A stretch of 44,126 bases of DNA from an uncultured Fibrobacteraceae bacterium (lineage in GTDB: Bacteria; Krumholzibacteriota; Krumholzibacteriia; LZORAL124-64-63), in the NCBI GenBank assembly GCA_964484595.1, contig CAZAHC010000001.1, positions 1 through 44,126 on the forward strand, read 5' to 3'. Shown piece by piece: positions 30,552-37,161 of the stretch (positions are counted from its first letter, which is position 1; every line of letters starts with the position of its first letter). The position numbers and the translations under genes were made by a program. Under the pieces are notes generated by a model. The model worked only from the letters and a program-made list of their open reading frames with translations. It was not told the DNA's origin and did not search any database.

Positions 30552-31193
30552 ATGAAAAAGAGAATTGCCTTACTCTCGTTGTTGATCTTGCTGGCCCTGT
30601 TCGCCGGCGCTTGCCAGAACGACAACCCCATTTGCACTCCCGGCGAGAGCGAGGATGAGACCGGGGACCCGACCGCGGTTGCGGGCAAGGGCCCCGATCC
30701 CTACCTCGACCTGCAGTGGCAGATCCACCTGCAAGAACTCTGGGATTACAGCAACAGCGTTGTGTACGACACCCTCACCGGCACGTTCACCATCGATTCG
30801 GACTGGGTCCTGAGCGACTACCCCGACACCTGGGGGCCGGATTATCTCTTCACCATCTCGATTCCCGCCGGCGCGGTCGAGGGACAGCCGGGGACAACCA
30901 TCGCCATCACCCTTCTGGTTCCCACCTTCAATCGCCTGCACAACCACGCGGTGTACAAGCTCCAGCCCGATCTCCAGTTCAACGAGCCGGTCACCGTGAG
31001 CCTCTGCTATCCGTTCTGGCTGGACCCCATCTCCTGGTACCGGAAGTTCTGCTTCTTCCCGATCAGCGAGGATCCCCTGTTGATGGGCCACAGCGATCTT
31101 CAGGTCGATCGGGCCGACGAGCTCGGCGGGGTCATCCGCGTGACCTTCAACACCTTCCACTTCTCACGGTGGGCGCTCGAGGAAGGGAAATAG
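30552..31193 (+). CDS. lipoprotein, unknown function
   Basis: The N-terminus MKKRIALLSLLILLALFAGAC has a lipobox (LFAGAC). No domain was recognised. Confidence 0.75.
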   Translation: MKKRIALLSLLILLALFAGACQNDNPICTPGESEDETGDPTAVAGKGPDPYLDLQWQIHLQELWDYSNSVVYDTLTGTFTIDSDWVLSDYPDTWGPDYLFTISIPAGAVEGQPGTTIAITLLVPTFNRLHNHAVYKLQPDLQFNEPVTVSLCYPFWLDPISWYRKFCFFPISEDPLLMGHSDLQVDRADELGGVIRVTFNTFHFSRWALEEGK

Positions 31194-34200: not shown

Positions 34201-34482
34201 CCGCTTGATCCGCACTGCCAGGTCCCGGTACCGCTTCACATCCCGTACCGTCCGGTTCGTCGGCCGGGTTTCCGGCAGGGAGGAGTATCCCGCGGCGATG
34301 GCGGCTTGCAGGTCCGCCGACAGGGGAACCCCCTGCAGATCGAAGAAGGGGGACGGCCCCCCCTCCGGTTCGGCCTGCCGCTCGCCGCAGCCCGGTAGGG
34401 CCAGCAGCGCCACCGCCAGGAACAACCAGGACCAGGTCCGGGCCGCCGCGACGAAACTCGCCTGTCCTCCGCAAACCGTCAC
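31231..34482 (-). CDS. TPR-repeat / CHAT-domain (caspase-like peptidase) protein, probable lipoprotein
   Basis: The C-terminal CHAT region has VLHIATHAV and LVYLSCCEAS (His/Cys dyad) and ends HPYFWAYYRLIGGSG. The long N-terminal region is TPR-like. The likely start is GTG 34482, giving MTVCGGQASFVAAARTWSWLFLAVALLALPGC. The track start at 34572 overlaps the sigma gene. Confidence 0.85.
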   Translation of the reverse strand: MTVCGGQASFVAAARTWSWLFLAVALLALPGCGERQAEPEGGPSPFFDLQGVPLSADLQAAIAAGYSSLPETRPTNRTVRDVKRYRDLAVRIKRPASRQEAGDELYALWRSDPENFLWIGLATRYNGLLRRTGERNEMYALPALADTTGPVGAFVRGRRFYRYGDRGEFYRRAERGRAGLDSLQQIWLERKLALVESHAGRNLAAVERLLGGIRQARALGGCFAEYYLWLDIARFLLRDDRLDDALHAAALSGAMAGRSGSAYCTLRSRVTIANILATRREYGEALAILEECLAAAAAGNYPWLYAHSADLAASVCGNLGRPEQALEIDRMVFGYNLAVADSMNTPRSLVNIADDFRLLGQLDSCRVYLRRARSWVDLFPHPRNRALLPRFEAEYFCQIGDYAAAESLLSEARAGLSVASLAVDEAELLLRLIRQGLERGQAEVAYRAIDRLRQLRGVLHDSEPDKNLVADFEIATADFLARQGEFRLAAEAHVRAREAVAAGGGTGQEWEYLRSAGELALLRGDIGSARESFAASLSLAGEAGNSDQLARSRFHFGHVLLLEEKFVQARELFLDHGADSAFGGRFRTRLSSLLFLGMSCSRAGEFAEALAYFERARGLCVSRSPADLRARLEVETGLAQAALGEWRRAEVSFLRALELGREEEGRSQVGELRSFCGNLLRDATEALIGLYLDHAELLPAEDLGRHTFLLAEQNRHGGSGRGRGGDPGPVLQVLLDQRRSPLLAFFVGRTRSFAWVVAAGRVDLLALPARRELNELLLPTLADMENPARPVEPGAAHRLGQVLLGPVVSHWREGSTLLIIPDDLLFGMPWSGLFLPRPADSAGAKVALDHGPVVEAPCLVSFGLEEAVPPGRIPVGRGSLLALGIDSADRGLPAAGSRALHHAESEARGVADLWSGGEAVLRVGREASWDQVAGSGLERFAVLHIATHAVAFQGLPTRSTIRFAGGEGAPQLTIPAVGKLVLNADLVYLSCCEASRRLSGASTGLMDFAGAFLQAGARSVIASTLRVDDEASRFLAERFYGHWLAGETKAVALRMAQQDVRAAGGRWEHPYFWAYYRLIGGSG

Positions 34483-34560
34483 CCGTCCTCCCTGTTCGCC
34501 GGTGAACCAGGATCTCCAGGTTTCTGGACAAAAACCCACGGGATGGAATAACCTTGAATC

Positions 34561-35220
34561 ATGACCAATCAACCCAAACCGGCGCCCGGGAACGACCCCG
34601 ACCTTGCCCGTGCCGTTGCCGCTTACCTGGCCGGGGATGAATCGGCCGCGGACGGACTATACCACCTGCTGCACGGTCCGGTCCATGCCGAGGCCCAGCA
34701 GTTCCTGGCCCGGGACAACATCGATTTCGACGACATCGTCCAGGATTCCCTGCTGGCCGTGCTCGACTACGTGCGGAAGAACGGAGGTTTCTCGGGCGAT
34801 CTGATCAAGTTCGCGGTCACCGTCGTGCGGAACCGCTGCCGGAACCTCCTGAACTCCCGCCAGAGGTGGCGCCAGGTCCCGATCGAGACGTTGCGAGATC
34901 GGTTGACCTCCGCCCTTTTGCGTAACCCTCTGGAAGCGCTCGAGGACGCGGAAATCCGCGGCCTGGTGCAGGAGGCGCTCGACCAGCTCGGACCCGAGTG
35001 CCGAGCCCTGCTGCACGCCCTGTACCGCCAGGGCAAGGCGTGCAAGGAAATGATCGGTCCCCTGGGGTTGAAATCGGTGCACGGAGTGTACCGCCGCCGG
35101 TCGTCCTGTCTGCTGCAGCTGAATCGGATTGTCAAAAAACGCCTGGATATTTGTTCATCTCCCAAGGGGAAAAGGCCGCTGCGGTCCACCGGGACCGCCG
35201 GGCCCAAGGCCAGGAAGTGA
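34561..35220 (+). CDS. ECF-type sigma-70 family RNA polymerase sigma factor
   Basis: Region 2-like sequence is DDIVQDSLLAVLDYV and region 4-like is ECRALLHALYRQGKACKEMIGPLGLKSVHGVYRRRSSCLLQL. It is transcribed divergently from the CHAT gene. Confidence 0.85.
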   Translation: MTNQPKPAPGNDPDLARAVAAYLAGDESAADGLYHLLHGPVHAEAQQFLARDNIDFDDIVQDSLLAVLDYVRKNGGFSGDLIKFAVTVVRNRCRNLLNSRQRWRQVPIETLRDRLTSALLRNPLEALEDAEIRGLVQEALDQLGPECRALLHALYRQGKACKEMIGPLGLKSVHGVYRRRSSCLLQLNRIVKKRLDICSSPKGKRPLRSTGTAGPKARK

Positions 35221-35222
35221 TC

Positions 35223-35996
35223 ATGAGCCCCACCGACAACGACCCGGGTTTCTTCGAGTGCGTCGACCCCGCCGTCGGAGATCTGGTCTGGCGGTACAGC
35301 GAACCGGACCTGGATCCGGCCCTGCGTCGCAAGCTGACCGATCACGTGGCCATCTGTGACGCCTGCCGGTGGGACCTGGGCCTGGAACAGGCCGTCCTGT
35401 CCGGCCTGCAGGACCGGACCCTGCAGGTCGACCCTCCCCGGCAGGGTCTTTTCTCCCCCTTCCGGCACCGGCGCCGCGCCGCCGCCAGGTCCCTCCGGGC
35501 CGCCGGCGGACTGGCCCTGGCCGCCAGCCTGGCGCTGATGCTGCTCCTGTCTCCCTCCGCCCCCGACGGCGACCTCGTCGACCGTGGCGGAGATGACCTT
35601 CTCCGCATCCTCCGGCCCGTCGAGAGCGAGGTGGTTTTCCAGACCGGTCCCCGCATCGTCTGGACGCCGCTGCCGGACGCGGTCAGGTACAAGGTCACCC
35701 TGCGGCAGGCCGGCGGCTCGTTCGCCTGGATCGATTCCACCTCCGCCACCGAGATCCGGGTTCCCCGCAACGCCTCGCTGCCCCGTCGCGCCCGGATCCG
35801 CGCCTTCGTCGAGCCCTTCCCGCCCGACCTGGCGCCGCCCCGCGGCGTCAGCGTTTCCTTCCGCACGGGTTCTCCCGCCGCCTTCTTCCTCTACCGCCTG
35901 GGCGCCGCCCCGCCGCCGGTACGCTTGCTGGCCGTGGTGGGCCTGGGCCTGCTAGCCGCTGGCGTAATGTCCGCCTGGCTGCTGCGCCGGCCCTAG
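35223..35996 (+). CDS. putative anti-sigma factor (zinc-finger type), single-pass membrane protein
   Basis: ATG 35223 lies 2 nt after the sigma-gene stop. It has an HVAICDACRW (HX3CX2C) motif, a central TM (LALAASLALMLLL), a periplasmic domain and a second C-terminal hydrophobic segment. Confidence 0.65.
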   Translation: MSPTDNDPGFFECVDPAVGDLVWRYSEPDLDPALRRKLTDHVAICDACRWDLGLEQAVLSGLQDRTLQVDPPRQGLFSPFRHRRRAAARSLRAAGGLALAASLALMLLLSPSAPDGDLVDRGGDDLLRILRPVESEVVFQTGPRIVWTPLPDAVRYKVTLRQAGGSFAWIDSTSATEIRVPRNASLPRRARIRAFVEPFPPDLAPPRGVSVSFRTGSPAAFFLYRLGAAPPPVRLLAVVGLGLLAAGVMSAWLLRRP

Positions 35997-36215
35997 AAAA
36001 TCCGCACAAAACCTCCGCCCCATCTGTTCAGGGAATACGGCCAGGGCGAGGTCTTGCCTGGCTCCTGTGCAAACCGTTTCGACCAGTCGGACCGGAGCCT
36101 GGCCGAGGGAGAAGACGAGCCCCACGACGTACGCGGGAGCGTCGGCCCTCCGGCCGACGTCGATCACGGGCGCAATCCCGGCGCCTCTCCCGCCAGAAAG
36201 AACAGGAGTGTGACC

Positions 36216-36404
36216 ATGGGCGAGAAGAGTACCCCGAGGAAAATGATGCTAAACAAGGAGTCGGTTCGCGTTCTGACGGATCCTGACCTGAAACAGGCGA
36301 GCGGCGGCAGGCCCCCGGTGAGCAATTTCGTCTGCCTCTGGCTCACCCAGGCCTGTCCACCGGTCTTCACCGAGGTCGGTTGCTATACCGACCAATGCCG
36401 CTAG
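36216..36404 (+). CDS. 62-aa double-glycine-leader peptide with a 4-Cys core (bacteriocin/RiPP-precursor-like)
   Basis: AGGAG lies 7 nt before ATG 36216. The leader is MGEKSTPRKMMLNKESVRVLTDPDLKQASGG, which fits the LxxxELxxxxGG spacing at -12, -8/-7 and -2/-1. The core is RPPVSNFVCLWLTQACPPVFTEVGCYTDQCR. Confidence 0.55.
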   Translation: MGEKSTPRKMMLNKESVRVLTDPDLKQASGGRPPVSNFVCLWLTQACPPVFTEVGCYTDQCR

Positions 36405-36434
36405 CCACAACGGCCCGATCTTCGGTCCAAAAAA

Positions 36435-36463
36435 GCGAGGGGGGTGCTTCGCCCCCCCCTCGC
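36435..36463. terminator. GC-rich hairpin between convergent genes, with a U tract only for the minus-strand transcript (P5)
   Basis: GCGAGGGGGG (36435..36444) pairs with CCCCCCTCGC (36454..36463). An A6 run at 36429..36434 becomes U6 after the hairpin on the minus-strand RNA. Confidence 0.5.
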
Positions 36464-36561
36464 GGTTAGGCTCTATCTGATAATCCCCGGACCGAGTCGG
36501 GTGCGTCTGGCGACGGGAGAGGGTTTTCAGAGAGAGCCTAGTCCGGCCAGACGACCGCCGA

Positions 36562-37161
36562 CTACCGGAACAGCGCCTTGAGACTGCCCCAGGTGACCCC
36601 CCGGTTGGGAATGACACCGCCGCAATCGCAGTTGATGCAGCCAACCGGCAGCGTGTAATCGCCGCTGGAGGGGGTCAGAAACTCCCAGTCGGCCATGAGG
36701 TTCCATTCCCCGCAGTAATAACCCGGGTTCTTCAGAGGCGGGGGCTGCTGGCCCGCGTAGGGACCCAGGTAGAAGAAGACCGGCTCAAAAGACAGGGGCA
36801 GGATGGTTACCTCGAGAACCTGTACGGCAGGGGCACCGGTGAAATCGAGCCCGCCGACGGTCCAGTGGCCCTGGGGATAGTCCGGAATCCATATGCCACC
36901 ACCGGTGGGTACGTAGTCGACGATCACGCCGTCAATGGGCGCGTAGGACACGCCGAATCCCCAGCCGTTAACGCAGGCAAGCTTGGGATTGGTGATCGTT
37001 ACCCAGCCGGTGACCGGAACGCCCGGAGTCGCGTCCACGCAGTTGACCTCCCCCCCGGTGTCGAAGTAGAGGCCGAAGCTGTTCAGAGCCGGATCGATCT
37101 GGGCCAGGGTGAGCGCAGGGAGCAGCAGGGCGAGACTGAAGACGATGCCTGGGTACCTCAT
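36562..37161 (-). CDS. secreted protein, C-terminal TWG-tail family member P5 (same core subfamily as P1)
   Basis: The RBS is GGAGGAG. The signal peptide is MRYPGIVFSLALLLPALTLAQ. The mature N-terminus includes LYFDTGGEVNC. The tail is GVTWGSLKALFR-stop. A candidate extended -10 (TGATACAAT on the minus strand) lies at 37211..37219. Confidence 0.75.
   Translation of the reverse strand: MRYPGIVFSLALLLPALTLAQIDPALNSFGLYFDTGGEVNCVDATPGVPVTGWVTITNPKLACVNGWGFGVSYAPIDGVIVDYVPTGGGIWIPDYPQGHWTVGGLDFTGAPAVQVLEVTILPLSFEPVFFYLGPYAGQQPPPLKNPGYYCGEWNLMADWEFLTPSSGDYTLPVGCINCDCGGVIPNRGVTWGSLKALFR

Follow-up and report, generated by a model that had tools for sequence, protein, structure and literature searches.

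A double-glycine leader peptide gene conserved beside a TPR-CHAT, ECF sigma and anti-sigma factor module in an uncultured bacterium

Class I lanthipeptide precursors (LanAs) whose leaders carry LxLxKx5L instead of FxLD, many of them ending in Gly-Gly, were reported by Walker et al. in 2020, and their clusters, described for Bacteroidetes, often encode a C39 protease (PMC7268733). The genes for prochlorosin precursors are distant from that of their synthetase (PMC7268733). The class I lantibiotic microbisporicin is controlled by MibX/MibW, a pair consisting of a sigma factor for extracytoplasmic function (ECF) and its anti-sigma factor (PMC4973701), and in Myxococcus xanthus the ECF sigma factor DdvS is paired with DdvA, an anti-sigma factor with a TPR-CHAT periplasmic part (PMC11506125). 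We analyzed a 44,126-nucleotide stretch of DNA (the window) from an uncultured Fibrobacteraceae bacterium, placed by GTDB in the Krumholzibacteriota, in which a gene for a 62-residue, four-cysteine peptide (positions 36,216 to 36,404) follows genes for a TPR-CHAT protein, an ECF sigma factor and an anti-sigma factor. The peptide is very probably a precursor of a peptide that is synthesized ribosomally and modified post-translationally (RiPP), with a double-glycine (GG) leader of the LxLxKx5L...GG family. Its gene belongs to a conserved five-gene cassette of lipoprotein, TPR-CHAT, ECF sigma, anti-sigma and peptide genes. The peptide gene and its parts lie at the following positions:

36216-36404, plus strand: precursor peptide gene, 62 residues, ATG at 36216 and TAG at 36402-36404 (stop counted in)
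36204-36208, plus strand: ribosome-binding site AGGAG, 7 nt 5' of the ATG, within the block AGAACAGGAGTGTGACCATG
36216-36308, plus strand: leader, residues 1-31, ending in GG, with the motif MxLxKx5L (family motif LxLxKx5L)
36309-36401, plus strand: core, residues 32-62 (31 residues), C-X6-C-X8-C-X4-C

The translation consists of the leader MGEKSTPRKMMLNKESVRVLTDPDLKQASGG followed by the core RPPVSNFVCLWLTQACPPVFTEVGCYTDQCR. The original prediction, made from the letters of the window, had proposed an orphan ORF (open reading frame) of 62 residues with a good ribosome-binding site, a GG-type leader with hydrophobic residues at -15, -12, -7 and -4 and an acidic one at -8, and a 31-residue core with four spaced cysteines. 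The coordinates, the AGGAG and the cysteine spacing were all confirmed, as was every leader residue (V at -15, L at -12, D at -8, L at -7, A at -4 and GG at -2/-1). The block AGAACAGGAGTGTGACCATG around the ribosome-binding site is identical in the orthologous locus L061 and differs by a few bases in two further lineages, G023 and L096, all of which are described below.

The ORF is almost certainly a real gene. Gene callers predicted it in five independent metagenome assemblies, and the exact peptide is encoded on five metagenome contigs, each of which is 99.97-100% identical to the window and thus gives no polymorphism signal. A word-index search for close homologues returned only the peptide itself, and two scans of genome contigs, one with the peptide and one with the anti-sigma factor, gave no match. 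When 1.84 billion representatives were scanned with HMMER, two homologues spanning both leader and core emerged: P0003, with 61 residues and 51-53% identity to the window peptide (E = 2.8e-10; ...VQGG followed by RPYPSAVLCIWLTQGCPPPLTVTGCPDTQWQCV), and P0006, with 60 residues and 47-48% identity (...VNGG followed by RTTQYVTQLCAFPSQHCPPPLTEECYTMLNCE). A coding signature had been set beforehand as a test of the ORF, and it is present: over 59 codons aligned between the window gene and its L061 orthologue, differences at the three codon positions number 22/22/36, a different but synonymous codon is used for 19 of the 29 conserved residues, and the insertions and deletions are multiples of three. 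ORF and leader are conserved, with the frame kept, in homologues from three other lineages. A chance ORF might be suspected from the shortness of the gene and from overlapping reverse-strand ORFs of similar third-position G+C, but the ribosome-binding site, a leader homology that is significant genome-wide, and the frame kept in three other lineages with synonymous divergence and in-frame indels reduce that probability to almost nothing.

The leader has the residues looked for in substrates of C39-type ATP-binding cassette (ABC) exporters, or peptidase-containing ABC transporters (PCATs), that is, GG at -2/-1 and hydrophobic residues at -4, -7, -12 and -15. It reads M-M-L-N-K-ESVRV-L ... SGG, so that three of the four positions of the LxLxKx5L motif are exact and the first Leu is replaced by Met. 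Searches with GG-leader models, which had been proposed along with the original prediction, gave a divided result: NF038153 (lant_leader_L1a) is the best and only NCBIfam match, at 17.1-17.4 bits (E = 0.0046) under a curated cut-off of 22 bits, and TIGR04149, the leader model for targets of radical S-adenosylmethionine (rSAM) enzymes, did not match at E <= 1. The orthologue P0006 scores 31.4 bits on NF038153, above the cut-off, and a second peptide encoded on L061 scores 21.9 bits. A profile hidden Markov model (HMM) built from seven other leaders of the same genome had the window ORF as its sole additional match among 58,731 six-frame segments (19.3 bits, E = 0.0022, with the runner-up at 10.4 bits), showing that the leader is more than a chance resemblance. 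The earlier reading as a cysteine-rich RiPP or bacteriocin precursor with a GG leader holds, and is sharpened to a precursor of class I lanthipeptide type.

The core contains exactly four Ser/Thr and four Cys residues, which fall into the pairs S-NFV-C, T-QA-C, T-EVG-C and T-DQ-C. Each Cys has its own Ser/Thr 3-4 residues N-terminal to it, a one-to-one pairing at all four positions that core shuffling reproduced with p = 3.5e-4 (0.0047 with a looser window of 2-5 residues), the spacing window having been picked after inspection of the sequence. Direction and range are those that lanthionine rings require, with Ser/Thr N-terminal to Cys for (methyl)lanthionine formation. All four pairs are kept in P0003 and P0006.

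The homologues also place the peptide in a constant gene neighborhood, of which the members in the window are:

30552-31193, plus strand: lipoprotein of 213 residues, fifth conserved gene of the cassette, 41.5% identical to a 209-residue gene of L061
31231-34539, minus strand: TPR-CHAT caspase-fold protein (PF12770 CHAT, 127.5 bits; TPR_12)
34561-35220, plus strand: ECF sigma factor (TIGR02937, 53 bits; Sigma70_r2, 28 bits)
35223-35996, plus strand: anti-sigma factor (zf-HC2, 18.6 bits; RsrA-type, 17.9 bits; both weak)

The ECF sigma, anti-sigma and CHAT neighbors named in the original prediction are thus confirmed, the anti-sigma factor as a zf-HC2 type and the CHAT protein as a divergently encoded TPR-CHAT protein. 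The anti-sigma factor has a clear N-terminal HxxxCxxC zinc finger, a transmembrane segment, a periplasmic domain and a C-terminal hydrophobic segment. Reading by eye gives the TPR-CHAT protein an N-terminus of lipoprotein type (…LALPGC) as well as a His/Cys dyad. Both it and the small protein resemble lipoproteins, and CHAT may thus act in the periplasm as a site-1 protease on the anti-sigma factor.

The gene for P0003 lies on L061, a metagenome contig of 22.8 kb, and recurs on several more contigs. The order of genes on L061 is 209-residue lipoprotein, TPR-CHAT (minus strand), sigma, anti-sigma, a 78-residue GG-leader peptide and P0003, with identities to the window of 41.5% for the lipoprotein, 59% for CHAT, 67% for sigma, 50% for anti-sigma and 53% for the peptide. 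The flanks of the L061 cassette are unrelated to those of the window on both sides, and orthologues of the L061 flanking genes (53-66% identity) occur on other contigs of the window genome. P0006 is encoded on a 698-nt NCBI contig (L096), which starts with the C-terminal 86 residues of the orthologous anti-sigma factor (68% identical over 59 residues, E = 2e-23) and continues with a conserved two-box element, discussed below, and the peptide gene. Among 208 genomes of the phylum, the best match to the peptide outside the window genome is on contig C246 of genome G023 (E = 1.3e-12), and the subfamily was not found away from the cassette. Contig C246 carries the element and the peptide and starts 278 nt upstream of the element, and the orthologous G023 module, on contig C329, ends within the anti-sigma gene; adjacency of the anti-sigma and peptide genes is therefore probable in G023. 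The peptide subfamily is thus present in four lineages, in three of which (window, L061 and L096) it lies directly 3' of the orthologous anti-sigma gene. A sigma/anti-sigma pair kept beside the structural gene, as in ECF-controlled lantibiotics, is seen in the window and L061, and for the anti-sigma gene in L096. In a collection of 5.8 billion proteins, sigma orthologues of at least 61% identity were found only in the window, L061 and two contigs of G023.

Two observations concern members of this cassette. The 78-residue peptide of L061 (L061:9633-9869) has seven cysteines and the same PQTQWQCV tail as P0003; it has no counterpart in the window, and could either have been lost there or have been gained in L061 by duplication. 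A second G023 copy of the orthologous module, on contig C50 (L041:3965-4709), may be a decaying duplicate: its anti-sigma gene is broken across two reading frames, and no peptide gene lies downstream of it.

The module also occurs without the peptide. We found 20 further CHAT/sigma/anti-sigma loci, 19 of them in 12 related genomes and one on another contig of the window genome (C5, 100-5830); these loci include L026 and L035-L052, and G023 has at least five copies. Their sigma factors are mostly 31-48% identical to that of the window, with two G023 copies at 61-65%, and the genes 3' of the anti-sigma gene vary among them. Paralogues of the 213-residue lipoprotein adjoin other modules of this kind. 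Within about 6 kb of the 20 paralogous modules, neither a regular expression nor the leader HMM detected a GG-leader ORF. Conversely, about 30 peptides of the family lie in eight G006 and G023 loci with no module nearby, and G006, in which these peptides are most numerous, lacks a CHAT/sigma/anti-sigma module. The 20 peptide-free modules and some 30 module-free peptides suggested that peptide and module are not partners at all, a reading that was overturned by the orthologous cassettes and that stands for the paralogues. The link of the peptide to the module is specific to this one orthologous cassette. The connection proposed in the original prediction is accordingly supported by adjacency to the anti-sigma gene in three of four lineages, a shared element and differing flanks, and does not extend to the 20 paralogous modules.

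The noncoding features around these genes are:

36001-36030, plus strand: two-box element TCCGCACAA-N15-TGTTCA, starting 5 nt past the anti-sigma stop, candidate promoter or operator
34525-34554, plus strand: promoter-like TGGACA-N18-TAACCT 5' of the sigma gene, kept in paralogous modules
36435-36463, no strand assigned: G+C-rich hairpin between the convergent peptide gene and a 199-residue gene, found by folding

The element TCCGCACAA-N14/15-TGTTCA is invariant in the four lineages, where it precedes the first peptide gene on the 3' side of the anti-sigma gene (probably so in G023), and the rest of the intergenic DNA is unalignable except for the ribosome-binding-site block AGAACAGGAG...ATG. 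The element occurs once in the 3.37-Mb window genome. We tentatively suggest, with somewhat more doubt than confidence, that it could be a promoter on which the cassette sigma factor acts directly. On L061 a 13-bp hairpin (z = -6.7) stands between the anti-sigma stop and the element, which favors a separate promoter or operator over expression by read-through only. In the window, no terminator was predicted between the anti-sigma and peptide genes, the intergenic region showed no unusual fold (z = -0.76), and no Rfam family matched within 35800-36700. A motif of the form TGGACA-N17/18-TAnnAT, which resembles a promoter of housekeeping type, lies 5' of the sigma gene in each of the eight modules that we inspected, among them paralogues; it is absent upstream of the peptide gene. 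No conserved block was found 5' of the lipoprotein gene of the cassette. The strong hairpin downstream of the peptide gene (-38 kcal/mol for an 81-nt stretch, z = -3.1), which the original prediction had assigned to the peptide gene, is real, but the T-run belongs to the minus strand (A6 at 36429-36434), making it primarily the canonical terminator of the convergent 199-residue gene and at best a bidirectional one. Right after its anti-sigma stop (L061:9395-9432), L061 has a perfect 13-bp palindrome with the core GTCAATCCTGAAATTTCAGGATTGAC, which the window lacks and which might terminate transcription or bind a protein.

The window is contig C1 of a 3.37-Mb assembly (G000; 378 contigs, 88% complete). 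As the original prediction had stated, the 44-kb window has no C39-ABC transporter, rSAM enzyme or lanthipeptide enzyme. A search of the genome for PCATs, rSAM/SPASM maturases and paralogous GG-leader peptides, which had been proposed at the same time, found all of these on other contigs, so that the peptide is an orphan within the window and not within its genome, which has seven paralogues, a LanB, two LanCs and a C39-ABC exporter. The paralogues, found by a protein search of the assembly and a six-frame motif scan, are small GG-leader ORFs with Cys-rich cores and the leader pattern (K)KLxLNKETVRxLxxxELxxVxGG, and lie on contigs C3 (three), C7 (one), C10 (two) and C28 (one). Six of the seven pass the NF038153 cut-off (29.7-33 bits); the remaining one, C10a, lies beside a LanC gene and is also below it, at 17.3-18.1 bits. 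Contig C3 (21197-34900) carries a complete class I cluster with PCAT, HlyD, LanB, LanC and three precursors. Its LanB (PF04738, 586 bits; PF14028, 232 bits) is the only one in the assembly, and besides its LanC (127 bits) there is a second one (122 bits) 3' of the two C10 precursors; LanB and LanC are thus encoded on different contigs from the window precursor. The sole C39-ABC exporter (C3:21197-23434) combines PF03412 (118-122 bits) with ABC_membrane and ABC_tran, has HlyD adjacent to it, and by eye has an intact C39 domain with the Cys (SDCGAAC) and His (KHFVV) motifs. The G+C contents of C1 and C3 agree (0.664 vs 0.659), and so do their tetranucleotide profiles.

The settings of the remaining paralogues differ. 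The C7 paralogue (G000:C7:2006-8208) adjoins an rSAM/SPASM enzyme, a methyltransferase and an ABC transporter that has no C39 domain, and a single leader family may supply two maturation chemistries. No enzyme is near the C28 paralogue. In the C3 cluster, a PF07638-type ECF sigma factor and a Ser/Thr kinase-TPR gene are directly upstream of the precursors; this sigma and kinase pair also lies beside GG-leader peptides in G023 (C541 and C574), and has a second copy on G000:C191. Two adjacent C3 precursors are preceded by a 68-nt block that is 85% identical between them (about 34479-34546 and 34822-34889; …TGGCGCA…GGCAGGAATGYCGGCTCTCGCAACCCATCAT), which could be a duplicated promoter or an element of the 5' untranslated region. 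This duplication is the only upstream similarity found among the eight precursor genes of the genome, which have no promoter motif in common.

Among 41 related genomes, the NF038153 leader family was found in four (G000, G006, G023 and G039; E <= 0.001). LanB is present in three of these four (G000, G006 and G039) and is missing from all 37 leader-free genomes; the compared genomes are kin, and the co-occurrence is to be read as a pattern and not as a statistic. G006, which is 98% complete, has 22 leader matches, two LanBs and at least six LanCs, and for many of its precursors the nearest enzyme is tens of kilobases away. The G006 counterpart most similar to the window peptide is encoded among an S9 peptidase and AbiE genes. 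The dispersed precursors of G006 indicate that service in trans is normal in this group. Some sets of G006 precursors are paired with a LanC of their own (C4:246000-264000, L057; C6, L054 and L058; C18, L056), and the few LanBs against many LanCs suggest shared dehydration with specialized cyclization. A scan of metagenome contigs added four peptides of the general family that adjoin LanB, LanC or PCAT genes, and no further member of the subfamily.

We favor the explanation of a lanthipeptide precursor that undergoes maturation in trans and whose expression is the output of this ECF module, a combination that we regard as evenly poised between right and wrong. Its two parts each seem to us somewhat better founded: lanthionine maturation in trans is fairly probable, and a functional coupling of the peptide to the module is equally so. 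The single LanB, encoded on C3, would dehydrate the four Ser/Thr residues of the core, and the LanC of C3 or C10 would close four consecutive (methyl)lanthionine rings on the four cysteines. The only C39-ABC transporter, with its HlyD partner on C3, would then cut after GG and export a 31-residue peptide with four rings. The precursor would be served in trans, like the dispersed precursors of G006. On the regulatory side, the CHAT protein, taken as periplasmic, may be the one to inactivate the anti-sigma factor, and the freed ECF sigma factor of the cassette would switch the peptide on through the conserved element.

Several observations weigh against this explanation. No maturase or exporter is encoded on the contig of the precursor, whose leader is under the NF038153 cut-off and has Ala in place of Val or Ile at -4, which is weaker than the Val found at this position in its paralogues. 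The leader type is not restricted to Lan enzymes, as the C7 paralogue is over the NF038153 threshold and yet beside an rSAM/SPASM enzyme. G023, which carries the peptide subfamily, has no LanB, strong LanC or PCAT in an assembly that is 87% complete and in 660 contigs, and the Lan-enzyme content of cassette carriers is known for the window genome and G023 only. The element is unlike the promoter-like motif of the sigma gene, and unlike textbook ECF promoters as well. Finally, the cassette occurs in only four lineages, all fairly close kin, so that its gene order may be inherited.

We considered three competing explanations. The position of the peptide beside the module could be inherited order without function, the peptide being regulated separately and the element being read by another factor. 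The restriction of the arrangement to four related lineages would fit this, as would the dissimilarity of the element to the motif of the sigma operon and the lack of any motif in common with the other precursor genes. Set against it are the rearrangement of both flanks between window and L061 at protein identities of about 55-66%, the divergence of the intergenic DNA beyond alignment save for the element and the ribosome-binding-site block, and the failure to find the peptide anywhere else in the 208 genomes of the phylum; we consider this explanation unlikely. A GG-leader peptide might also be exported without lanthionines, either as a disulfide-bonded, bacteriocin-like peptide, for which four cysteines could make two disulfides, or as a product of the rSAM/SPASM enzyme of C7. 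The leader closest to that of the window in its own genome is in fact that of C7 (47% over residues 2-33), beside the rSAM/SPASM enzyme, methyltransferase and ABC transporter, and no Lan enzymes were seen in G023. The one-to-one spacing of Ser/Thr and Cys, which is kept in the homologues, is against this explanation, as are the failure of TIGR04149 to match and the tracking of LanB by the leader family at the genome level, and we judge it distinctly unlikely.

In the remaining explanation the peptide, once matured or exported, would serve the module as a signal or as a substrate, an idea that the original prediction had raised. It would be bound by the TPR domain of the CHAT protein or by the periplasmic part of the anti-sigma factor, the anti-sigma factor would be cleaved and the sigma factor set free, and an autoinduction loop would result. 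TPR domains bind peptides, which would suit such a role, as would the retention of the peptide with the cassette in four lineages (adjacency being probable in G023). Precedents are the self-induction of microbisporicin through MibX/MibW (PMC4973701) and the TPR-CHAT periplasmic domain of DdvA, for which signal-induced proteolysis has been proposed (PMC11506125). However, 20 paralogous modules function with no such peptide, G006 is richest in peptides and has no module, and the Gly-Gly site is a target of C39 peptidases and not of clan CD proteases. A signal or substrate role is compatible with the explanation that we favor, and is not exclusive of it, but a peptide that is the transcriptional output of the sigma factor is simpler, and we consider the role quite improbable. 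More speculative still would be a self-contained circuit for peptide signaling, of a novel type, in which the exported four-ring peptide binds the TPR domain of the CHAT protein, CHAT cleaves the anti-sigma factor in its periplasmic domain, and the sigma factor transcribes the peptide from TCCGCACAA...TGTTCA. We think such a circuit a long shot; if true, it would be a protease-gated, quorum-type autoinduction loop that borrows the lanthipeptide machinery of the genome, and would supply the TPR-CHAT/ECF modules, which have multiplied in this phylum, with their first ligand and their first output.

Compared with known systems, the window peptide shares with the L1a class I LanAs (PMC7268733) the leader motif, with one conservative change of L to M, the Gly-Gly end and the paired Ser/Thr-Cys core, and its genome likewise has LanB, LanC and a C39-ABC exporter. 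It differs in that its host appears to belong to the Krumholzibacteriota, its gene is on a separate contig from the enzymes, its leader is below the model cut-off, and it is known from sequence. Distant precursors, conserved leaders, hypervariable cores and a GG-specific exporter are also features of the prochlorosins, and are read here from the DNA. In the prochlorosins, many dispersed precursors of cyanobacteria with Nif11-type leaders are served by one class II synthetase (LanM), whereas the system described here is of class I (LanB and LanC), and the related genome G006 has several LanCs per LanB. In both this genome and G006 most precursors lie far from LanB, and mining for RiPPs by proximity to enzymes misses them.

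With MibX/MibW the cassette has in common an ECF sigma factor and a membrane anti-sigma factor beside a class I lanthipeptide structural gene, and feed-forward regulation is plausible in both. MibX/MibW are within a full actinomycete biosynthetic cluster and have no protease partner, whereas here the precursor stands alone with the regulators, a TPR-CHAT lipoprotein and a second lipoprotein, and its regulation is predicted from this arrangement. The combination of a TPR-CHAT caspase-fold domain, a zinc-finger anti-sigma factor and an ECF sigma factor is that of DdvS/DdvA. The CHAT domain of DdvA forms part of the anti-sigma factor by fusion, its dyad is incomplete, and the regulon consists of CBASS/CRISPR defense; in the window, CHAT stands on its own as a lipoprotein that has a His/Cys dyad, and the sole conserved neighbor that is a candidate output is the peptide precursor. 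A TPR-CHAT protein is reportedly found in Craspase as well, in the form of Csx29.

The class of the peptide is known and widespread. What is new is the coupling of such a precursor to a TPR-CHAT/ECF sigma/anti-sigma cassette, which is undescribed within the literature that we searched. The cassette offers a concrete, testable output for a module that occurs in many copies in an uncultured phylum, and it ties signaling by a caspase-fold protease to how a peptide natural product is controlled. The nearest precedents that we found are an ECF pair that has no protease, in MibX/MibW, and a CHAT-containing anti-sigma factor that governs defense genes, in DdvA.

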